Shown: piece after piece, positions 11,231-40,424 of the stretch
Layout: the number at the start of each line of letters is the position of its first letter
How positions within the stretch are numbered: position 1 is the stretch's first letter
DNA from: an uncultured virus (IMG/VR IMGVR_UViG_3300035505_000652)
Taxonomy: Duplodnaviria; Heunggongvirae; Uroviricota; Caudoviricetes
Strand: one strand, 5' to 3'
IMG/VR virus record: IMGVR_UViG_3300035505_000652
DNA: 64,000 nt
Program-made: the position numbers and the translations under genes
The notes under the pieces: generated by a model
The model's database searches: none
What the model was told of the DNA's origin: nothing
The model's input: the letters and a program-made list of their open reading frames with translations, nothing else

Positions 11231-11719
11231 ATGATGAATTTAAAATTAATTGTAGCAGTTGATAAGAATTGGGGCATAGGAAGAAATAATGAACTATTAG
11301 TCTCAATTCCTGAAGACATGAAATTTTTTAGGGAGACAACCAAGAACAGCACTGTCATTATGGGCAGAAAGACTTTGGAATCGTTTCCAAACGGCAATCC
11401 TTTAAAAAATAGGGAAAACATAGTCCTAACCTCTGGAGTTATTGACAAGGAAGGCGTTGTTGTATTCCATTCCATAGAGGATGTATTGGAATATGTCAAA
11501 GATAAAGACAATTGCTTTGTCATAGGAGGGGCATCCATTTATAAGCAATTTCTTCCTTATTGCAACAAGGCTTATGTTACAAAAATAGGAAAGGCTTATG
11601 ATGCAGATACCTATTTCCCAAATCTTGATGATGTTGAAGGTTGGGAGATAAAAGATATGGGTGAAGAGAAGGTTTGGAATGATATTCCATATTCATTCAT
11701 AACATATGAAAAATATTGA
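11231..11719 (+). CDS. folA: dihydrofolate reductase
   Basis: LIVAVDKNWGIG, EDMKFF, VIMGRKT, PLKNRENIVL, VIGGASIY, DTYFP. Confidence 0.95.
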   Translation: MMNLKLIVAVDKNWGIGRNNELLVSIPEDMKFFRETTKNSTVIMGRKTLESFPNGNPLKNRENIVLTSGVIDKEGVVVFHSIEDVLEYVKDKDNCFVIGGASIYKQFLPYCNKAYVTKIGKAYDADTYFPNLDDVEGWEIKDMGEEKVWNDIPYSFITYEKY

Positions 11720-11874: not shown

Positions 11875-12549
11875 ATGGAAAAAACAACAATAAAAATCCA
11901 TTGGAAAGAAGAAAACGTCACCGATAAGAGAGTATTTTATAAGGGTGACGTCGTGAAATACATAGATAAGGAGGGGTCTGAAACACTTGGAGTTATAGTA
12001 AGCAATAATTTATGCTTATTCCATTCCAAGGTATTTCAAGTTATACCAATAGACGACCCCTCCAAAACCAACATCCAAGATGAGGTCAAAAATGAAGACC
12101 TGATATCTCGGTCTTGGATTGTTGAATTTGTTGGCAGGGTTGACCGAGGAACCCTACGGAGGCTTGACAATGCCATAGTCAGGCATCATGAAATTAAAGG
12201 CATGGGCGAATACCAAATAGGAGATGTATATATGGCAAACATCCCAGAATACGAAGATAGTAGTATTCAAAAAGGTTTTCGCCCAGTTATAGTTGTTAGC
12301 GGTGAAGAGAATGAGGAGGAAAACTTCCATGTCTTACCGTTGACAACGAAAGACAAAAAGAAAATGCGTACTCATGTGAAAGTATCGGCTTCCGATACTT
12401 TCATGGAAAGAGATAGCATCATCATGGCTGAGTCTGAAATGACATTGCCTAAAATGAACCTAATCAAAAAGATTGGGACGTTTGATGAAGCTATACAGGG
12501 GCTGGTGTTGAATGCGATAAAAGTTCAGCATCAAATAAGCATTTGTTGA
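11875..12549 (+). CDS. tandem PemK/MazF-fold protein
   Basis: two repeats: KGDVV..GVIVSNN..QVIPI and GDVYMA..SIQKGFRPVIVVS..VLPLTT..HV. Confidence 0.7.
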   Translation: MEKTTIKIHWKEENVTDKRVFYKGDVVKYIDKEGSETLGVIVSNNLCLFHSKVFQVIPIDDPSKTNIQDEVKNEDLISRSWIVEFVGRVDRGTLRRLDNAIVRHHEIKGMGEYQIGDVYMANIPEYEDSSIQKGFRPVIVVSGEENEEENFHVLPLTTKDKKKMRTHVKVSASDTFMERDSIIMAESEMTLPKMNLIKKIGTFDEAIQGLVLNAIKVQHQISIC

Positions 12550-25655: not shown

Positions 25656-27230
25656 ATGGCTGAAACATTAACAAAACAAGAGTTGGCAAGCAAGATATGG
25701 GAAACTGCCAACAAACTTCGTTCAAAAATCAAAGCTAATGAGTATAAGGATTATATTCTTGGCTTTATGTTCTACAAATTCCTATCAGATACAGAGGAGC
25801 AATTCTTAGAAAAGAATGATGCTACCAAGGAAGACATCAAGGATGCGGATGAGGATACAATCAAGATGATTCAAGATGAACTTGGTTATTTTATCGCATC
25901 TGATGATTTGTTTTCTTCTTGGATTGAGAAGGGTATTAATCTTGTAACATCAGATGTATCAGATGCCCTTATTAGGTTTAATTCACAAATCAAAAATGAA
26001 TATAAGAAGGTATATGAAAACATCTTCTCAACATTGTCTGGTGGGCTTTCAAAGTTTGGAGAAAACCTTGGAACTAGAAACAAGGCTGTAAGGGATATGG
26101 TTGCAATGACAGGGGAAATCCCATCAACTTCTGATGAGTATGATGTTATGGGATATATATATGAGTTCTTGATTTTTAAATTTGCAACAGCTGCAAAGGA
26201 TGACGGTGCATTCTATACGCCTCATGAGGTAAGCCTTTTGATTTCCTTGATTTGTGCAGAGGCTTGCAAGGATAAAGAACATATCCAAGTATATGACCCT
26301 ACATGTGGTTCTGCAGGGCTTCTTTTGACCATTGGTGATGCAATGTCCAAGTATGTTGACAAGGATGAAATCGAGTATTTTGGACAGGAGAAGATTACAG
26401 AGACATATAACCTTTCACGTATGAATTTGGTTATGAAGGGTTGCAAACCCGCACAAATTTCAATAAGAAATGGCGACACTCTTGAAGATGATTGGCCTTA
26501 TTTTGATGAGAATACAGAGTATAACCCAGTCTTTGTTGATGTAGTTGTTTCAAATCCACCCTACTCATTGAATTGGGAAGCAGATGGAAAAGAAAATGAT
26601 GCCAGATTTAGAGGTTATGGAGTAGCTCCAAAAAGCAAGGCTGACTATGCTTTCTTATTACATAGCTTATACCATTTAAAACCAACCGGCGTTATGGGTA
26701 TCGTTCTTCCTCATGGAGTTTTATTCAGAGGAGGCACAGAAGGTGCTATTAGAAAGCAATTGATAGAAAACAACCAAATCGAGACCATTATTGGGTTGCC
26801 AGCAAATTTGTTTTACAATACATCCATTCCAACCCTTATAATGATATTGCGCAAGAATAGAACCGCAACATATATCAATGACAAGGGTGAAGAGGTTGTT
26901 GATGATAGAATTCTTTTCGTGGATGCAAGCAAGGAGTTTAAGTCTGAAAAGAAACAAAATATTTTAACCCAAGAAAATATAGATAAAATCTTCAAAGCAG
27001 TTCAGGATAGAACTGATGTTGATAAGTTCGCACATCTTGCTACAAAGCAGGAGGTTATTGACAATGACTATAACCTCAATATTCCAAGATATGTCGATAC
27101 TTTTGAAAAGGAAGAAGAGATTGATTTGGATGATGTAAGAAATTCAATCAATAAAGTAAGAGAAGACAAACAATCTGTTTTAAATGACATTAATAAAATG
27201 ATGGCAGAATTAGGATTGGCAGATATTTAA
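25656..27230 (+). CDS. hsdM: type I R-M methyltransferase subunit
   Basis: FYTP, YDPTCGSAGLL, NPPY, LPHGVLFRGG, YNLNIPRYV. Confidence 0.95.
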   Translation: MAETLTKQELASKIWETANKLRSKIKANEYKDYILGFMFYKFLSDTEEQFLEKNDATKEDIKDADEDTIKMIQDELGYFIASDDLFSSWIEKGINLVTSDVSDALIRFNSQIKNEYKKVYENIFSTLSGGLSKFGENLGTRNKAVRDMVAMTGEIPSTSDEYDVMGYIYEFLIFKFATAAKDDGAFYTPHEVSLLISLICAEACKDKEHIQVYDPTCGSAGLLLTIGDAMSKYVDKDEIEYFGQEKITETYNLSRMNLVMKGCKPAQISIRNGDTLEDDWPYFDENTEYNPVFVDVVVSNPPYSLNWEADGKENDARFRGYGVAPKSKADYAFLLHSLYHLKPTGVMGIVLPHGVLFRGGTEGAIRKQLIENNQIETIIGLPANLFYNTSIPTLIMILRKNRTATYINDKGEEVVDDRILFVDASKEFKSEKKQNILTQENIDKIFKAVQDRTDVDKFAHLATKQEVIDNDYNLNIPRYVDTFEKEEEIDLDDVRNSINKVREDKQSVLNDINKMMAELGLADI

Positions 27231-27249
27231 TGCTTTAATTTCCACTATG

Positions 27250-27385
27250 CATAACCTACTCCCCTATGCTTTCAGCATAGGGGTATCTCCATTTAATGGG
27301 TTATTACATCAAGTTGGAACAAATCCCAGCTGCAATGGATGGATTATTTTAAAGAAACATATGCTTCAAAAATGTTTTGTTAGAA
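27250..27385 (+). pseudogene. probable hsdS 3' remnant preceded by an IS200/IS605-end-like hairpin
   Basis: LKKHMLQK resembles HsdS C-termini; CCCCTATGCT-ttc-AGCATAGGGG hairpin at 27261-27283. Confidence 0.4.
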
Positions 27386-27519
27386 CAAATAACTTTGTTT
27401 TAGGGTTTATGAATAACAATTTATTTATAAGTTCTAAAAACAAAAAATATAATAAATCAGTATATTTGTAATTAAAACATCATTAACATAGACCATTAAA
27501 CAAAAAGGAGTGACAAAAT

Positions 27520-30500
27520 TTGATTGGAAATTACACAGGACAAATGGGGGAGGCAAACTTTGAAAAAGATTTTATTGAAATGCTTGTTTCCCAAGGATGG
27601 GATGGAAATATCATAAAAAATCCCTACCACAAAACTTTAGAGGAAAATTTACGAAATATCATTAATGAAAACAATATTGACAAGCTTGGCTCGTCAGACC
27701 AATTGACCGATGCAGAGTTTGCCCAAATTATGGATAAAATAAATTCAGACTGCACTACGCCAGTTGCAGCCAATGTATTTATCAACAGCAAGCAGGTTAC
27801 AATTAAGTCTGAAATCAATAGGCAAAAATACAAGGTTGGTGATGAAATTTATCTTGACATCTTCGACCCAGTTGAGGTTGCCGGCGGAAAATCAAGATAC
27901 CAGATTGCAGAACAAATTTATTTCAATACAGACCCCAAGTACAATAATAGACGAGGGGATTTAATGCTTTTGATTAATGGATTGCCTGTAATCCATATAG
28001 AGCTTAAGGCAAGCGGACACAATCTTGAAGAAGGTACAATGCAGATACAAAAATATATGAATGAAGGAGTGTTCAAGGGATTGTTTTCTTTGATACAGGT
28101 GTTTTTTGTCGCCACTCCAGAAGACATCATTTATTTTGCAAATTCATACCCGACGCTCAATCCAACTTTCATGTTCCATTGGGGGGATAATAAAAACAAC
28201 CAGATACATAATTGGCAGCAATTGATTAAAGGACCAAGCCAAATCCTTTCAATTCCAGAAGCCCATCAGCTTGTTGGATATTATACAAGTGCAAGCATAG
28301 AAAAAGATTCCAACGGCTGTATTGAAAACATCAATAATGGGATTTTAATGGTTGCCCGTTCATACCAGATATATGCCATTAGGAATATTATGAAAAGGGT
28401 TAAGCTCCAAAGATGGGGAACACATACCCCATTAGGAGGATATGTATGGGGCACTACTGGATGCGGCAAGACTTTTACAAGCTACAAGTCTGGACAGCTT
28501 ATAACAGACAAGAATTTTGCAGACAAAGTCGTTTTTGTAGTTGACAGGGTTGAGTTATCCGACCAATCCTATAAGGAATATAATTCATTTGCAAGGGATG
28601 GAGAACCAATTGCAAAATCAAAATCCACTTATGATTTGTTTAAATTGTTGTCTGATGACAAACATAGGCTTGTGATTACATCCATTCAAAAACTTTCAAG
28701 GGTTAATGAGGAAAAATCCAAGTATGTTAATAAGGTGGATATAGACAAAATTAACAAGAAAAGAATAGTCTTTGTTATAGATGAAGCCCATCGCAGTCAA
28801 TTTGGGGAAATGCATGAGCATATCAAAAGCACGTTTACAACGGCTTTGTTTATTGGTTTTACAGGCACTCCTATTTTTAGTGAGAATGATAAGGCAGAAG
28901 GCATGACTTCTGAAATTACCTTTGGAGACTGCCTTGCAGTTTATTCAATTGCAAGCGGTATAAGGGATAAAAATGTCCTTGGGTTCAGCCCCACAATGGT
29001 TAGAACTTTTGAGGATAAAACATTGAAAGATGCCATTGCTTGTGATAGGGCAAAAGTTTCATCAAAAGATGAAGCCAAAAAAGACCCAGCAAAGTGGAAG
29101 ATTTATAAAGATACTTTGAATTATGACATGAAGACTATTGAAAAAATGCTGCCGCCAAACCAATATAATTGCCCCCAACATAGGGCGGCGGTAGTTAAAG
29201 ATATTGAAAGCGGTTGGGAAGTCCTCTCCAACGAGGGCGGGGCAATTAGATTCCATGCATTGCTTGCAACAAATTCAATTGCAGAAGCCATTGAATACTA
29301 TAGGCTGCTCAAAGTTTCAAAGACGCATGTTAAAGTAACAGCCCTTTTTGACCCCAATACAAATGGAGACAGTCAAGCTGTCATCAACAAAGAAAAAGCC
29401 ATTGTTGAAATTATTGATGATTACAATAAAATGTTTGGAACAGGAAACATTATTAATAGGGAGGCAGACCCATCCCTTAAATCATTCAAATCAGACATTA
29501 CGGCAAGACTCGCCCATAAAGGACCATACAAGCATATATCAGAAGCAGATATGATTGATATTGTTATTGTTGTAGACCAATTATTAACAGGGTTTGACAG
29601 CAAATATATCAATACATTGTATCTTGACAAAGTGCTTGAAACAGACAATCTTATACAAGCCATTTCAAGAACAAATAGGGTATTGGATTTTGATGAAAAG
29701 CCTTGGGGTATATTCAAGTGTTATAGACAGCCTTATACCATGGAGGAAAACCTTACCAATGCACTTCGCCTTTATTGCGAGGGCGGGGAAAACAGCGGGG
29801 CTATTGTAAAAAGCCTTAATGAGAATATAGATTTGGCAAACCAATTATATAAGGATATTGAAAAAATCTTTAATGATGCCAATATACAAAACTTCATGTG
29901 TCTGCCTAAATTGGATGCTGATTGTCAAAAATTTAAAGCATTGTTTAAAACCCTTGCCCAGACAATCAATGGCATGAAATTGCAAGGCTTGCATTGGAAA
30001 AAAGATGATGATGAACATGTCTTAAAGCTTGATGTATGCAAAAAATGGGTTGATGGAACCACAAGAATTTATGATATTTTATACATGAGGTATAAAGATT
30101 TAATGCCAATAAGCAGCAATACTCCAAACCAACATACTGGAAAGCTTGGGTATAGCATAATGGCAAGCCTTTCGGAAATGGAAAAAGCCAAGATTGATGC
30201 AGATTACCTTGAAGAACACTTCAAACAAATTATACCAATACTTATTGGGGATTTTGAAGAAGTTGAAAAGGATATGGCAATTGAAGAGTTCCAATCCCAG
30301 CTTGCTACATTGTCAATAACCCAACAAGAATTTGCAAATATTATCATTGAAGATATAAAGGATGGCAAACTTGATGTTGGAAACAAAACATTAAGGGAGC
30401 TTATCGCAGAATATCAGACAAATGCTGAAAACCAAATGGTTCTTGACTTTGCCGACAAATATGGCTTGAATGTAGCCTTGTTGCATAAAATATTCCATAT

Positions 30501-30636
30501 GAACGGCAATCATGACATGGAAATAAGCAAATTGTTGGAAACTTGTGACAAGGAAGTAGTTGAAAAAGCTTTTGATTGCAAATGGTTTGCAGCAAGGGTT
30601 AAACTAAATAAAGAGATAAAAGACTTCATAATGTAA
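27520..30636 (+). CDS. hsdR: type I restriction endonuclease subunit R
   Basis: GDLMLLINGLPVIHIELK, TGCGKT, DEAHRS, FTGTP, LLTGFD, QAISRTNR. Confidence 0.95.
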   Translation: MIGNYTGQMGEANFEKDFIEMLVSQGWDGNIIKNPYHKTLEENLRNIINENNIDKLGSSDQLTDAEFAQIMDKINSDCTTPVAANVFINSKQVTIKSEINRQKYKVGDEIYLDIFDPVEVAGGKSRYQIAEQIYFNTDPKYNNRRGDLMLLINGLPVIHIELKASGHNLEEGTMQIQKYMNEGVFKGLFSLIQVFFVATPEDIIYFANSYPTLNPTFMFHWGDNKNNQIHNWQQLIKGPSQILSIPEAHQLVGYYTSASIEKDSNGCIENINNGILMVARSYQIYAIRNIMKRVKLQRWGTHTPLGGYVWGTTGCGKTFTSYKSGQLITDKNFADKVVFVVDRVELSDQSYKEYNSFARDGEPIAKSKSTYDLFKLLSDDKHRLVITSIQKLSRVNEEKSKYVNKVDIDKINKKRIVFVIDEAHRSQFGEMHEHIKSTFTTALFIGFTGTPIFSENDKAEGMTSEITFGDCLAVYSIASGIRDKNVLGFSPTMVRTFEDKTLKDAIACDRAKVSSKDEAKKDPAKWKIYKDTLNYDMKTIEKMLPPNQYNCPQHRAAVVKDIESGWEVLSNEGGAIRFHALLATNSIAEAIEYYRLLKVSKTHVKVTALFDPNTNGDSQAVINKEKAIVEIIDDYNKMFGTGNIINREADPSLKSFKSDITARLAHKGPYKHISEADMIDIVIVVDQLLTGFDSKYINTLYLDKVLETDNLIQAISRTNRVLDFDEKPWGIFKCYRQPYTMEENLTNALRLYCEGGENSGAIVKSLNENIDLANQLYKDIEKIFNDANIQNFMCLPKLDADCQKFKALFKTLAQTINGMKLQGLHWKKDDDEHVLKLDVCKKWVDGTTRIYDILYMRYKDLMPISSNTPNQHTGKLGYSIMASLSEMEKAKIDADYLEEHFKQIIPILIGDFEEVEKDMAIEEFQSQLATLSITQQEFANIIIEDIKDGKLDVGNKTLRELIAEYQTNAENQMVLDFADKYGLNVALLHKIFHMNGNHDMEISKLLETCDKEVVEKAFDCKWFAARVKLNKEIKDFIM

Positions 30637-30749: not shown

Positions 30750-30990
30750 ATTAGAAATACAATTTAAACCAAACTGGTAGTTTTTGTTTTCATGCAATCC
30801 AAGGTATATATATGCTTGTTTTGGAAATATTACTTAAATCAAGGTGGTAGTTTTAGGTTTTTATATAAACCATATTCACTTTACATCCTTTATATCTCTT
30901 AAATCTCATAATACACTTTGAAGGTTAAGAGGATTAATTTTTAAGATAATAATTTTTTATTTAATGGAATATTCTCTTCGAGAATATTGA
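30750..30990 (+). repeat. spacer with two family-B units and palindrome C
   Basis: B cores at 30763 and 30833; palindrome at 30968-30988. Confidence 0.8.
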
Positions 30991-31084
30991 AGACATTTTA
31001 AGATAAAAAATAAATTGTCTAGCAAACAAGAAAACTCTTACAAGCAAATGTCATAAGAGTTTTTCTATAATAAATTTTTAGATA

Positions 31085-31318
31085 TTAATTATTGTATTCT
31101 TTAGGGTAATTCCTTACAAGATACAAACCAGTACACCCTCCAATACCGCCTCCATTGGCATTAAGAGTGCAAGCTATATTGTCACTATCATAAACCCTAT
31201 ATCCTTGTTTATGATTTCTGGAAAAATTCTTCCCATTATCCAACCATAGCTTTTCAGACACGCCTCCTATAAATACAAGTTCATTTTCACTTGGGGAGGC
31301 TTTTAAGCCTCCCTGATA
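31085..31318 (-). CDS. -1 frame extension of the DNA methyltransferase (TRD-like module, no start codon of its own)
   Basis: YQGGLKASPSENELVFIGG...KQGYRVYDSDNIACTLNANGGGIGGCTGLYLV...; opens at slippery A AAT TTT. Confidence 0.7.
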   Translation of the reverse strand, partial: YQGGLKASPSENELVFIGGVSEKLWLDNGKNFSRNHKQGYRVYDSDNIACTLNANGGGIGGCTGLYLVRNYPKEYNN

Positions 31319-33318
31319 AAATTTGCATCTTGGTTTTCTTCACCCAAAGACATTTCATGGGTTTCCTTCCAATCATAAAACATATCCAAGCCTTTCTCAA
31401 AAGCTCCAATTCCGCTAAACAATGAAATGAGTTTCAAATCATCAAAAAGCTCTGGCATAGCCTTGTACAATTCCTTGTAAACCTCATAAAGAACATTTGT
31501 TACGATTGAGTTACCGGCTTGCTTGTAAGCTTGGGTTGTGCTTAATGAAACAGCATGTTTTACGCCTTGCTCGTCTTTTTCATATTTAAGCTTGAAGCCT
31601 TTCTCCAATAATTCTTTTTCCTCTTCTGGGGTGTAATATTTTGCCTTGGCAAAATCTTCATCAGAAAAGCCCATAAGTCTGAATGATTCCAATGGGGTAA
31701 GTTTTCTAATTGCAAACCATTGAGGGTCGAATATGTAATTATCCTTTTGAACTGTCGTCAATGTATTGCAGATGCCGTCTTTTCTTGGTGAAAGCTCCCT
31801 CATGTTGCCAATTTTCTCATCAATGAGACCAGCCTCATAATCTTTTCTTATTTTCTTCCCATACTCTGTTCTTTCATATTTCAAGGCACATGGCTCAAGG
31901 ATGTAATTGTCTTTTTGAACTGTTGTCAATGTATTTGTAGTGCCGTTTACATTGATTTCTATTCTTTGCTGGGTTGGAAGCCCTGCAGTCCTTGCACTTG
32001 GATTTTCTGGGTTTCTTCCCCTGCTTGCACAGCATATTGGAAGTTCAATAGCTTCAATAATATGCTTATCCCCGCAAGCATCTATTGTTCTTAATGTTCC
32101 ACACATGTTATCCCTATATAAAACCATGCCGTCAGTCCTTGTTTCACAGGCAATCATCGCACATGGATACATTGAAGTTGCATTTTCAGGAAGCTCCACT
32201 TCCTTTTCCTTCTCCTTCTTGGCATCCTCTATTGGGATAAATTCCATGATGGATTTATCAAATGTATCATTTTCTATATTAAGGAGTTTCTTTAAATCAA
32301 GCCAAATAGAAGCTCTTGGAATTACGAATGTTTCATCCCTCTTGAACCATTCACTTGCCTCTTCTTTGCTTACATTTAACTTCTCAGCTATTTCGCTTAT
32401 GGATAACTTGCTTTCCTCCCTTTTCATTGTAAGGAGTTCTTTTAAAGCACTTAAATTAACGCTGTATTTTCTAATGCCATCCTCCCCTACATCAACTTTG
32501 TTGACTTCATTTAAAGATGGAATATCCTTTAAAAGTTCAAGCATATTTTCATCCAATTGATGGATGTTCTCCTTGGTTTCATTATCAATAAGGCTTATAT
32601 TTCCAAGATTGTTTATGCTTTGGTATAATTTCTTCTTGACTGTTTCATCCAAGTTGTTTAAAAGTTGTGTAGTCTTTTCAGGCTTCAAATAATAGCTTTC
32701 ATCAACATTCTTCTGCAATAAATCCTTCAATCTTATACCATTGTCAAAAGGTTCTGGAAACTTGAATTTTCCATTGTCAATATCCTTCCTTATAGCTACA
32801 AGGATAATCCTTTCCCTATTTTGAGGGATGCCGTAATGTTTTGCATTCAATACTTGGTAATAGACATTGTATCCATAATCTTTAAGCTCTTCAACAAACA
32901 AATTAAAGGTAGCTTTAAATTCAGAACCAAGAAGGTTTTTAACATTTTCGTATACCGCAAACTTAGGCATCTTGTCATGCAAAACCCTTAAATATTCAAC
33001 AATCAATGAAGAACGTGTCTTTTCAAGGTTTGTTGAATGGCAATGCGGGCATTCGCTTCTTGTCTTGTAATTTGCAGTCAAAGGATTATATTGGTATCCG
33101 CAATCCTGACAAGTCCACATAGCTCCAGCCTTCTTGCCTGCAGAACTATAGTCCTGGCAAGGGCTTCCGCCTACCAGCATATCAAAATCTGGAAGCTCGC
33201 TTGTGTTGACTTTCATAATGTCTCCGAGGTTCAAATCTTCAGATACTCCATGAATCCTTGAATAGCTCTTGGATGCGGCATTATCAATTTCACAATAATT
33301 AATTAACTTATATGACAT
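31303..33318 (-). CDS. dcm: DNA (cytosine-5) methyltransferase, circularly permuted
   Basis: EID, GSPCQD, ENV, PQNRER, RKLTPLE, QAGNSI, then motif I LISLFSGIGAFE at the C-terminus. Confidence 0.92.
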   Translation of the reverse strand: MSYKLINYCEIDNAASKSYSRIHGVSEDLNLGDIMKVNTSELPDFDMLVGGSPCQDYSSAGKKAGAMWTCQDCGYQYNPLTANYKTRSECPHCHSTNLEKTRSSLIVEYLRVLHDKMPKFAVYENVKNLLGSEFKATFNLFVEELKDYGYNVYYQVLNAKHYGIPQNRERIILVAIRKDIDNGKFKFPEPFDNGIRLKDLLQKNVDESYYLKPEKTTQLLNNLDETVKKKLYQSINNLGNISLIDNETKENIHQLDENMLELLKDIPSLNEVNKVDVGEDGIRKYSVNLSALKELLTMKREESKLSISEIAEKLNVSKEEASEWFKRDETFVIPRASIWLDLKKLLNIENDTFDKSIMEFIPIEDAKKEKEKEVELPENATSMYPCAMIACETRTDGMVLYRDNMCGTLRTIDACGDKHIIEAIELPICCASRGRNPENPSARTAGLPTQQRIEINVNGTTNTLTTVQKDNYILEPCALKYERTEYGKKIRKDYEAGLIDEKIGNMRELSPRKDGICNTLTTVQKDNYIFDPQWFAIRKLTPLESFRLMGFSDEDFAKAKYYTPEEEKELLEKGFKLKYEKDEQGVKHAVSLSTTQAYKQAGNSIVTNVLYEVYKELYKAMPELFDDLKLISLFSGIGAFEKGLDMFYDWKETHEMSLGEENQDANFIREA

Positions 33319-34291: not shown

Positions 34292-35134
34292 TTAAACATC
34301 TTCATCAATGATTACAGTATCATTTATTAAATTTGCATTTTTGGGCTTTGGATACATCCATGTATGGGGTTTCTTTGGAACTTCGCTTGGGGTTTTCTTC
34401 TTTTTATCTACAACCAATTTGTTGGATTTGTCTTCATTGGATGCATCTTTTAAATTTTGATTGGAAGGGGCGACTTGGATTTCTTGTTTTCTTTGCTTGA
34501 CAAGTTCATTCAAATTGTTTGTAAGGATTTCCTCGATTTGGAATTCAAATCCTTTATAAAAGGCAATGCCTTCCTTCTGCAAAGCTGTCCTATTCCTAAA
34601 ACCTTCCCTTTCGTTTGCAAGCTCCTCATATTCCTTAAAAGATACTCCTTTGCTGATACTCATGCCCAATTCTCTTTTTAAATAATAGTTAAGGAGGACG
34701 TTTGTGTTGGAGTGTTTGCGGTAAATTAAATAGGAATATACATTATCTTTGTATAACGAAAACGCCCTTCCAGCAAACATTACAAAACCCTTCGTGTAGT
34801 ATTGGTGGAATATGTAGGAAAATTCTTGGGCTATGCATGCAGTTGCTTCCTGCGCATAGTTGTGTTTCAAAGTCTTGATATAGGCAGCGGAATCCAACAC
34901 TATTATATTGACTTCATCGGTCGCCATATATATTAAGAAATTTGCGGACATTCTTTTACAAGCCATTTTTAATGCATATGTAAAAGTGCCTTCGGAATCA
35001 TCCAATAAATTAATTTGTTTGTTGCCTGTGATGTGCCTTCCATCCAAGCGTACAACAAACGGTCTATTCCTATTCAATTTTATATTGTATTTGCTTTCAA
35101 TTTTGTGGAAAAATTCTATTCGGTTCAAGTCCAT
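34292..35134 (-). CDS. tRNA(His) guanylyltransferase Thg1-family protein
   Basis: VVRLDGR, YMATDEVNI, FAGRAF, YLIYR motifs. Confidence 0.8.
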   Translation of the reverse strand: MDLNRIEFFHKIESKYNIKLNRNRPFVVRLDGRHITGNKQINLLDDSEGTFTYALKMACKRMSANFLIYMATDEVNIIVLDSAAYIKTLKHNYAQEATACIAQEFSYIFHQYYTKGFVMFAGRAFSLYKDNVYSYLIYRKHSNTNVLLNYYLKRELGMSISKGVSFKEYEELANEREGFRNRTALQKEGIAFYKGFEFQIEEILTNNLNELVKQRKQEIQVAPSNQNLKDASNEDKSNKLVVDKKKKTPSEVPKKPHTWMYPKPKNANLINDTVIIDEDV

Positions 35135-39431: not shown

Positions 39432-40424
39432 CTATTGGCATATTAAATTGTTTGCATTGAAGCTTCCGTTTTTTTCAGTCACCAAGGTATATGAGGTACC
39501 CCTATGGGCTTTGATTTCATTTAACTGCCTTACCGGCTGCCACAACCTATTGTCTATACGGACAAAGTTTGCAGATTTGGGAACATTGTCCTTGAATTGG
39601 ATTCTAAATGATTGTTCCCCGTCGATAAATAAAGAATATCCTCCATAAGAATTAATATTCGCAACCATGATGCCGATTTGATAAATCAATTTATTGCAGG
39701 AATCCTTCAATATATAATATTCATCGGCAAACTTTCCCTTGTCTTCAGAAAAGCTCATTAAAAACGTATCCTGCATTTTGTCTGGAAGATAAAGCAAAGC
39801 CATTGGAATGATTGTTTCTTTATTCAATCTTGAAGTCATGCAAGCATTAAAAAAATATTCATCTTTAATCAAGCATTTCAAATACCCTTTTGATTTTGTA
39901 ATCGTGCAATCCAAATGCTTTGTTCTTTTTTCAACCTCTTCCAAGTATTTTTCCTTTATATTGATTGTTACAGTCTTGTTTTTAATTGATACGGAGTTCT
40001 TAATCATAAACTTTCCAATCAACCAGCAATCGTCATCATTTAGATTATATGTGTTCGTAGATTTATTCACTTTGCCCATCATGATAAAATCCTTTTTGGT
40101 TAAATCCTTTGCCTTTTTCCAAGTAGGCTCGCTAAATGCCCTTTCTGACAATTGGGATTGATTGTCCCATTTTCTTTTCATTTCTCTTACGTAGAAAAGT
40201 TGGTTTCCATGGACAAAGGTTGCAGGGCTTCCTTGGACTTGCAATCTGTAATGCCCAGCGATTTGTTTCTTGCCTATTTCAACAACCTTTTCAAATCTGT
40301 TGTTGGATGTAAGCACCATATCCCCCACTTTAATGGCTTCTATTGGCATGGGACCTTTGTCTGTCATCACCAAGGTTCCTCTCATGAAACCTTTTGTTTC
40401 CATCTTCAAACCACATCCTTTCAA
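39432..40424 (-). CDS. free-standing Hint/intein-like protein
   Basis: GFMRGTLVMTDKGPMPIEAIKVGDMVLT (block A) and YTLVTEKNGSFNANNLICQ (blocks F/G). Confidence 0.8.
   Translation of the reverse strand: MKGCGLKMETKGFMRGTLVMTDKGPMPIEAIKVGDMVLTSNNRFEKVVEIGKKQIAGHYRLQVQGSPATFVHGNQLFYVREMKRKWDNQSQLSERAFSEPTWKKAKDLTKKDFIMMGKVNKSTNTYNLNDDDCWLIGKFMIKNSVSIKNKTVTINIKEKYLEEVEKRTKHLDCTITKSKGYLKCLIKDEYFFNACMTSRLNKETIIPMALLYLPDKMQDTFLMSFSEDKGKFADEYYILKDSCNKLIYQIGIMVANINSYGGYSLFIDGEQSFRIQFKDNVPKSANFVRIDNRLWQPVRQLNEIKAHRGTSYTLVTEKNGSFNANNLICQ

Follow-up and report, generated by a model that had tools for sequence, protein, structure and literature searches.

Does the DNA methyltransferase (MTase) gene of a large gut phage end where its stop codon says it ends, or is a fraction of its product extended in another reading frame? 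The question is raised by a locus on the minus strand of a 64,000-nt stretch of DNA from the uncultured virus IMGVR_UViG_3300035505_000652 (Caudoviricetes), the whole of which is called the window here. The original prediction for this locus was that a programmed -1 ribosomal frameshift close to the 3' end of the gene adds an extra target-recognition domain (TRD) module to the enzyme. From comparison of the gene with its relatives, we consider it likely that this is a functional programmed -1 frameshift shared across the family, which in the window would give isoforms of 671 and 744 aa.

The window methyltransferase and its putative slip signal

The short isoform is encoded by the 0-frame open reading frame (ORF) at 31303-33318 (minus strand), a circularly permuted, apparently multi-TRD C5 cytosine DNA MTase of 671 aa, as assigned from the ORF list, from a Pfam match to PF00145 (C5 DNA methylase, E = 6e-54), and from an alignment of family members (A1). 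Catalytic motifs IV (PCQ), VI (ENV), VIII (QNRER), and X (GNSIV) are all present and are invariant in A1. The protein starts with motif II (..LINYCEID..), which is followed by PCQ, ENV, QNRER, several TL-type modules, motif IX, GNSIV, and then motif I near the C-terminus. This last motif, LFSGIGAFE (31396-31422, minus strand), contains the FxGxG that binds S-adenosylmethionine, lies downstream of motif X, and is invariant in a second, C-terminal alignment (A2). None of the eight aligned members in A1 has the canonical order with an N-terminal motif I; their order is II...VIII-TRDs-IX-X-I, and the permutation is therefore a trait of the family and not private to the window. The TL-type modules in the variable region match internal modules of relatives at the level of sequence similarity.

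At its 3' end the MTase ORF reads ...GCA AAT TTT ATC AGG GAG GCT TAA on the minus strand, to which all coordinates in this paragraph refer. The slippery heptamer A_AAT_TTT (31324-31318) is in the 0-frame register X_XXY_YYZ (codons GCA AAT TTT), six codons before the stop, and is separated by a 4-nt spacer, ATCA (31314-31317), from a putative stimulatory hairpin, GGGAGGCT-TAAA-AGCCTCCC (31313-31294), an RNA fold with 8 GC-rich base pairs and a 4-nt loop. The 0-frame TAA (31305-31303) lies inside that loop, and an apical-loop stop is also found in most relatives. Folding of 31324-31280 gives -17 kcal/mol with z = -4.04, and none of 200 shuffled sequences was as stable; the heptamer and the hairpin 4 nt beyond it are where the original prediction had placed them. 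Its caveat that the hairpin might act only as a terminator finds no backing, as the terminator scan, for want of a T-tail, made no call at the slip-site hairpin. The sequence AAATTTT occurs 89 times in the window compared with approximately 145 expected, and is thus rarer than expected. The heptamer alone carries no weight, and it is the heptamer, hairpin, and -1 ORF together, recurring in relatives, that exceed chance.

Contigs from two RNA libraries of two separate studies span 31086-32100 and 31158-32100 with 0 differences and 0 gaps relative to the window, so that the slip site is not a private assembly error, and the indel or sequencing error that had been envisaged as a trivial explanation is not seen. 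These data are contigs, in which rare variants are dropped and which carry no information on transcription level or RNA ends; positions 30900-31085 are uncovered in most RNA runs, and the end of contig X1 at 31086 was not counted as an RNA end.

The -1 frame ORF (31085-31324, minus strand; translation P0001) opens five codons before the heptamer, is closed further upstream, and terminates at the stop codon 31085-31087. From 31324 to 31085 it comprises 79 residues including QGYRVYDSDNIACTLNANGGGIGGCTGLYLV, with no methionine, and 77 of these would follow the slip, in agreement with the predicted 77 open codons devoid of ATG. The heptamer is thus the sole point of entry into this frame. In a tblastn search of cultured phages, P0001 matched two multispecific MTases of Bacillus phages, those of H2 and rho11s, in their TRD region with 57% identity over 46 residues (E = 1e-9), the rho11s match corresponding to residues 246-292 of a 503-aa protein. 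In a search against solved structures, P0001 residues 39-73 aligned to M.HhaI 236-270 (GQGERIYSTRGIAITLSAYGGGIFAKTGGYLV; E = 0.003), a segment that carries the DNA-recognition loops of that enzyme. A counterpart of the -1 module is found in-frame, among other TRDs, at residues 676-734 of the non-permuted protein P0058 (52% identity). The TRD core of the extension (QGYRVYDSDNIACTLNANGGGIGGCTGLYLV...), supported by the M.HhaI, H2/rho11s, and P0058 alignments, lies at 31106-31210 (minus strand). The H2/rho11s and M.HhaI alignments bear out the earlier identification of the -1 product as a TRD module, and a Pfam search with the 79-aa product returned no family at E up to 0.1.

An exhaustive profile-free search with the -1 module found 297 representatives at E ≤ 0.001. 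Among the 150 best of these, 26 are ORFs of 57-121 aa with little beyond the module, some of which begin with ATG; such stand-alone ORFs are what gene finders produce on meeting this split arrangement. The only start candidate within the first 30 -1 codons of the window is a GTG at 31261, and the AGGAGG that precedes it is just 1 nt away. Past the -1 ORF stop there is a weak hairpin with a T-rich tail (31034-31060, z = -1.56), on which the terminator scan made no call, and it is not used as evidence. In P0183, P0185, and P0202 the same TRD module is N-terminal, ahead of motifs I and IV, so that the opposite flank of the catalytic core can bear TRD modules as well.

Several other observations concern the MTase itself. 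Pfam gave weak zinc-ribbon matches at residues 13-101 and weak helix-turn-helix (HTH) matches around residue 300. The former include a CxxC...CxxC zinc-ribbon insertion between motifs IV and VI, at residues ~69-100 (weak HypA and Zn_ribbon_8 matches), and the latter an HTH-like stretch within the variable region, at residues ~297-326 (weak HTH_3 and HTH_11 matches), a module that is also present in the non-permuted relatives P0058, P0059, P0066, and P0089. The metagenome protein P0002 is 100% identical over 94% of the window MTase, from which it differs by a 2-residue deletion and one substitution, and it ends ...DDLKLII and so is without motif I. Many close homologs of the MTase, for example P0003-P0005, P0008, and P0011-P0015, contain inteins (Pfam Hint_2, Intein_splicing, and LAGLIDADG_3).

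Conservation of the heptamer and the -1 frame among relatives

Relatives were collected from genome contigs with A1 as the query (521 of 601 stretches confirmed, 80 kept), and with A2 as the query from metagenome contigs (270 of 580 confirmed, 80 kept) and viral contigs (379 of 507 confirmed, 80 kept). A metagenome scan with the whole MTase protein as query confirmed 0 of 446 stretches, and it was the C-terminal alignment query that succeeded there. Among cultured phages, megablast of the window locus gave no match, and tblastn of the C-terminal 165 aa gave solely non-permuted MTases (six records), with matches that end before motif I. The 240 loci and the window were scanned by script for frames with motif I no more than 70 residues after motif X. 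These 241 sources yielded 118 permuted termini, of which 104 were distinct after removal of identical 320-nt junctions; the remaining sources, non-permuted relatives or truncated loci, were left uncounted.

An in-frame AAATTTT follows motif I in 44 of the 104 distinct termini, which come from genomes, metagenomes, and viral contigs alike. The distance from heptamer to 0-frame stop is 8 codons in 33 of them, 7 in six, 4 in three, 10 in one, and 6 in the window, and the -1 frame is open from 0-8 codons ahead of the AAA codon. In 36 of the 44, a -1 ORF continues for at least 40 codons past the 0-frame stop (median 73, maximum 190), compared with none that has a +1 ORF of at least 40 codons (median 5). 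The two frames are on a par in the 60 termini that lack the heptamer, with a long -1 frame in 16 and a long +1 frame in 16, several of which are merely the next gene.

Constraint on the heptamer acts on the nucleotides. The dipeptide N-F in these tails is encoded AAT TTT in 50 of 51 cases, and at the cassette site the residue ahead of Asn may be G, E, I, or A, yet its codon has A in third position throughout (33 GGA, 7 GAA, 4 ATA, and 1 GCA). GGA makes up 32.5% of the 985 glycine codons in the same genes, compared with 33 of 33 glycine cases at the cassette, a constraint treated here as descriptive and not as a probability since the loci are related.

A covarying stem-loop that is kept and lost with the extension

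Nearly all of the 39 distinct 79-nt junctions fold to a stem of 9-12 bp with the 0-frame stop in the apical loop, and this shape is built from varied stem sequences, among them CCACAAGYGGA, CCACAGACAGA, CCGCAGGTAGA, GGAGAAGAG, CTGCCGA, GCCGTCAG, CCGCCAA, and, in the window, GGGAGGCT. For the 45 nt after the heptamer, a minimum free energy (MFE) of -10 kcal/mol or lower was found in 36 of 44 heptamer termini (median z = -5), compared with 4 of 59 control termini, two of these four being the one-base cassette variants L202 and L208. Of the 36 termini that reach this threshold, 30 have a gap of 5-6 nt between heptamer and stem. The hairpin accompanies a long -1 ORF in 35 of 36 heptamer termini, and occurs in only 1 of the 8 that lack such an ORF (locus L028); the seven that have neither long -1 ORF nor hairpin are L161, L166, L167, L194, L195, L197, and L204. 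The heptamer, hairpin, and -1 ORF are thus kept together and lost together.

The stem also covaries. In the main-class helix, assessed over 39 rows, 79.3% of cells pair, compared with 36-47% when the pairing partner is slid, and both sides have changed in 41 cells, a number reached by 0 of 500 shuffles. Given all 39 rows, RNAalifold predicted no pairs, since the stems of several rows are in a different register. From the 27 rows in the same register it returned an 11-bp helix, 6 nt beyond the heptamer, in which 7 of the 11 pairs show compensatory changes; the rows left aside for that run were the window, L001, L002, L096, L102, L161, L163, L164, L166, L167, L194, and L197. Comparison with homologs, proposed with the original prediction as a check on its three elements, has accordingly come out in its favor for all of them: the heptamer in 44 of 104 termini, the -1 ORF in 36 of those 44, and the stem in 35 of those 36.

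Selection on the -1 ORFs and their cargo

The -1 ORFs carry from one to four modules of at least five types, and this cargo differs between loci behind the conserved junction. The types are recognizable as GGIGEINFGKQYRQGNRVYD...; LKYQRTEYAKKIRK...NTITTVQKDNY; CIDDTQGFDG...PTLRSQRSGLKV; WVNDKYKKF...PTLSTRSNGAMGSGT; and the type found in the window, WLDNGK...QGYRVYD...TLNANGGG. Taken in that order, their median ratios of nonsynonymous to synonymous substitution rates (dN/dS, pairwise Nei-Gojobori) are 0.09, 0.06, 0.33, 0.21, and 0.25, the last of these from three pairs, with median dS of 0.8-1.7. By these ratios, the -1 ORFs are under purifying selection as protein.

Signals with which these ORFs might be initiated on their own account are lacking. 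Over the 30 codons that begin the -1 ORF, 0 of 36 loci combine an ATG, GTG, or TTG with a Shine-Dalgarno core of at least 5 nt at the correct spacing, and 22 of the 36 contain none of these three codons. The extension is without significant similarity to the 0-frame enzyme of its own locus in 34 of 36 loci, a test that is incomplete for six of them, where the 0-frame ORF is shorter than 310 aa; this fits better with an extension that would add something new than with one that duplicates an internal module.

Natural fusions and frame breaks in the sister group

In a sister group of loci, motif I is followed in-frame by a TRD-like module (..YINDYNGDANRVYDG..ARALKAEAGGGGAKTGWY..), and L110 is a single 445-aa ORF of this kind. 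Another module (..YDDYNSRVRSDQSTIGTLTTN..) is in-frame in L179, and in the -1 frame in L004, L013, and L090. Within the heptamer class no such simple in-frame fusion was found, although fusions of this sort among homologs had been named at the outset as grounds for abandoning the frameshift. Frame breaks at G runs (G5-G7), inside or before TRD modules, were noted in L004, L090, L008, L010, and L106-L111, in which the MTase is often split into several ORFs. These G-run breaks of the sister group look like DNA-level phase variation. As a separate observation, the -1 frame over the MTase stop in L178, L207, and L223 is a second complete C5-MTase gene of canonical order (..LSLFDGISCG.., ..GGSPC..) that overlaps the first.

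The L110 protein was modeled with AlphaFold2 (alignment A4, 52 rows). The core is confident, with the C-terminal β1 and helix A included (predicted local distance difference test score, pLDDT, ≥ 90), and the internal and C-terminal TRDs are both below pLDDT 50, with no confident docking of the C-terminal module.

Proposed mechanism and points that weigh against it

The original reading of the junction as a programmed -1 frameshift signal draws support from the homolog comparison, from purifying selection on the -1 ORFs, and from the lack of an initiation signal of their own. At an X_XXY_YYZ heptamer, a structure further downstream makes the ribosome pause, and during the pause the tRNAs in the P and A sites shift their pairing to the -1 frame. 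In the window, a majority of ribosomes would end at the TAA and release the 671-aa enzyme. The remaining fraction would pause at the hairpin with tRNA-Asn on AAU and tRNA-Phe on UUU; the former would then move from AAU to AAA and the latter from UUU to UUU, one base back, and decoding in the -1 frame would resume with UAU. The trans-frame product would consist of 667 + 77 = 744 aa and would read ...DANF-YQGGLKASPSENELVFIGG... across the junction, with an extra target-recognition module behind motif I. The long isoform would then methylate an additional DNA sequence, and the two enzyme species, in a ratio set by the efficiency of the slip, would protect against more host restriction systems. 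We are less sure that the long isoform gains a distinct methylation specificity than we are of the frameshift itself. The geometry proposed here can be set against the text of Sharma et al. 2014 (PMC4066793), according to which frameshift-stimulating structures generally begin 5-8 nt downstream and the H_HH.U_UU.Y class, which includes A_AA.U_UU.U, is among the most efficient in E. coli.

A number of considerations weigh against this interpretation. The window cassette is itself atypical for the family, in that its spacer is 4 nt where 5-6 is usual, its stop follows the heptamer at 6 codons and not at 8, and its stem is unrelated to the family stems. Eight of the 44 heptamer termini lack a long -1 ORF, which means that the heptamer, as the codons of the dipeptide N-F, can persist in the absence of such an ORF. 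L004 and L090 reach their -1 TRD ORF at a G5 run where no X_XXY_YYZ is present, and one-base variants of the heptamer occur in L187 and L202 (GAA TTT) and in L208 (AAC TTT). All three variant loci still have a -1 frame TRD ORF of 50-58 codons; in L208 the hairpin is retained as well, and another in-frame heptamer, A_AAC_CCA, follows 3 codons later. As the sequences stand, then, not every frame break in the family is a heptamer signal, and a second, DNA-level route of frame breaking probably coexists in it. The loci are moreover related, and many come from one IMG/VR data set, so the counts are not independent and the shuffle controls may overstate significance. There is also the matter of topology, since TRDs do not usually follow motif I and helix A, and AlphaFold2 gave no confident placement for one there; because of the permuted motif order, which the original prediction had not noted, the extra module hangs behind motif I, away from the normal TRD site. 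Finally, the case for frameshifting at this locus is made entirely from sequence.

Alternative explanations

The family does contain versions with an in-frame C-terminal TRD, some of the sister-locus frame breaks at G runs are mutational in look, and 8 of the 44 heptamer termini have lost the extension, all of which would be expected if the -1 ORF were a decaying remnant, that is, an ancestral in-frame TRD cut off by a 1-nt deletion so that the 671-aa enzyme alone is made. Random indels, however, predict +1 and -1 frames at equal frequency, and the observed numbers are 0 and 36; the break lies at one and the same heptamer throughout, and a covarying hairpin follows it; dN/dS values of 0.06-0.33 at saturated dS are not those of decay; and the junction is kept while the cargo varies between loci. 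We regard decay as improbable for these reasons. To a similar degree, it is improbable that the -1 ORF is a separate small TRD protein that acts in trans after its own initiation, or after termination and reinitiation at the loop stop. The 26 stand-alone module ORFs described above, some of them ATG-started, would suit such a protein, as would the window GTG at 31261, which lies directly behind AGGAGG. That gap is merely 1 nt, however, the survey of the 36 heptamer-class loci found no start codon with a spaced Shine-Dalgarno core and, in 22 of them, no start codon whatever, and independent initiation would leave unexplained both the in-frame heptamer and a -1 frame that opens 0-8 codons before it.

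In a different account, the hairpin would affect the stability of the mRNA, act in attenuation, form a joint at which TRD cassettes recombine, or have some other role, and the heptamer would be no more than the preferred codons of a conserved Gly-Asn-Phe tail. Differing TRD cargo behind one conserved junction does suggest cassette exchange by recombination, and AAT and TTT are indeed the preferred codons (77% and 78%). Such preference does not extend to the position before Asn, where the residue varies among G, E, I, and A while the codon always ends in A and glycine is always GGA, far from its background share; the stem is lost where the extension is lost (1 of 8 compared with 35 of 36); no T-tail is present; and a role in recombination is in any case compatible with frameshifting. 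As a replacement for frameshifting we give this account slightly less credence than the two before it. Least probable of all, to the point of being very unlikely, is a change of frame at the nucleic acid level, with A3T4 as the site either of transcriptional slippage or of phase variation in the DNA. The G-run frame breaks elsewhere in the family lend it some plausibility; against it, no run-length variant was found among the 44 distinct sequences, the two RNA-library contigs are without an indel (though contigs drop rare variants), and runs of 3 A and 4 T are far below the lengths known for polymerase slippage. A programmed -1 frameshift therefore remains the reading that we consider likely.

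Relation to known systems

The proposed arrangement shares with dnaX, the IS3-family orfAB genes, and the phage tail-assembly chaperone G/GT an in-frame X_XXY_YYZ, a stem-loop 4-10 nt further on, and a -1 ORF without a start, as well as the outcome, here predicted, of two products with a common N-terminal part in a set ratio. The canonical -1 frameshift rules used for this comparison are those in the text of PMC4066793. What sets the present case apart from these systems is that the gene encodes a DNA methyltransferase, that the heptamer is A_AAU_UUU and not of the A_AAA_AAG type, that the 0-frame stop lies in the hairpin loop, and that the -1 cargo is a swappable recognition module that differs between relatives. 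Frameshifting itself is a known mechanism; apparently new are the class of gene and what the shift would be used for.

In the multispecific Bacillus phage MTases M.SPRI, M.Phi3TI, M.Rho11sI, and M.H2I, the motifs run in the normal order I-X, and a single frame holds all the TRDs, which lie between VIII and IX. The window enzyme would resemble them in having one catalytic core with several short putative TRD modules, and differs in that motif I is C-terminal and one module follows it in the -1 frame. In M.BssHII, motifs IX-X precede I-VIII. With natural MTases of that type, and with engineered permuted C5-MTases, the family shares reordered motif blocks with an intact catalytic core, but only motif I has moved to the end here, so that the permutation point differs from that of M.BssHII. 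Engineered, circularly permuted variants of M.MpeI and M.SssI are the subject of PMC5944983. Phase-variable methyltransferases and hsdS shufflons likewise vary methylation specificity from a single locus. They do so by a heritable DNA change in repeat length or by inversion, with one state per cell, whereas both isoforms of the present enzyme would arise in each infected cell from unchanged DNA.

Full-text literature searches for frameshifting in a DNA methyltransferase (also for TRD, multispecific, and cytosine-5) returned nothing relevant. The first 300,000 characters of the review by Atkins et al. 2016 contain no DNA methyltransferase case, nor do the main texts of the GeneTack survey and of a 2025 preprint. 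A DNA methyltransferase extended by frameshifting has thus apparently not yet been described, a statement that leaves aside the supplementary tables of PMC4066793 and PMC3711429, which could list such a gene cluster.

Genomic surroundings

PHROG matches on 40 neighboring ORFs include a dihydrofolate reductase, an endolysin, exonucleases, radical-SAM proteins, and a tRNA-His guanylyltransferase-like protein, together with many phage-only families that have no known function, and IMG/VR contigs of 90-200 kb carry many of the MTase relatives; each of these observations suggests a large phage. In the window, the Thg1-like (tRNA-His guanylyltransferase) ORF is at 34292-35134 on the minus strand, and the dihydrofolate reductase and a MazF-like ORF are at 11231-11719 and 11875-12549 on the plus strand. 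Convergent on the MTase locus, with a gap of 290 nt, are type I restriction-modification genes for HsdM (524 aa) and HsdR (1038 aa) at 25656-30636 (plus strand); no HsdS was found among the window ORFs scanned. A separate ORF of 330 aa with a Hint_2 domain, at 39432-40424 (minus strand), has a weak PHROG match to the anaerobic ribonucleotide reductase large subunit.

Implications for phage methylation

Few gene families of bacteria and phages are known to use programmed frameshifting, and a DNA methyltransferase that gains recognition modules in this way would, if the reading is correct, extend recoding to a new functional class. Methylation specificity would moreover be widened or tuned by a new route, one that works at translation and not through phase variation of the DNA. 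Gene callers split such genes into an MTase and an orphan ORF of 60-120 aa, with the consequence that annotations and REBASE-style specificity predictions for the family are systematically incomplete. The 39 distinct natural variants of one heptamer and hairpin cassette offer a resource for the determinants of frameshift efficiency, and a functional TRD behind motif I, if it is one, would be informative for C5-MTase engineering.

Such a mechanism is relevant to the question of how large gut phages get past many host restriction systems simultaneously. A further possibility, which we put forward tentatively and with more doubt than confidence, is that the heptamer-hairpin junction is a conserved socket with two roles, a translational valve and a recombination joint, in a large family of gut-phage methyltransferases. 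Were this so, the valve would set the share of enzyme that bears extra recognition modules, and at the joint phages would exchange cassettes of one to four TRD modules, which would work with the catalytic core from behind motif I, an arrangement unprecedented among solved C5-MTases. Phage populations would in that case tune and swap their anti-restriction methylation spectrum while leaving the core enzyme untouched.

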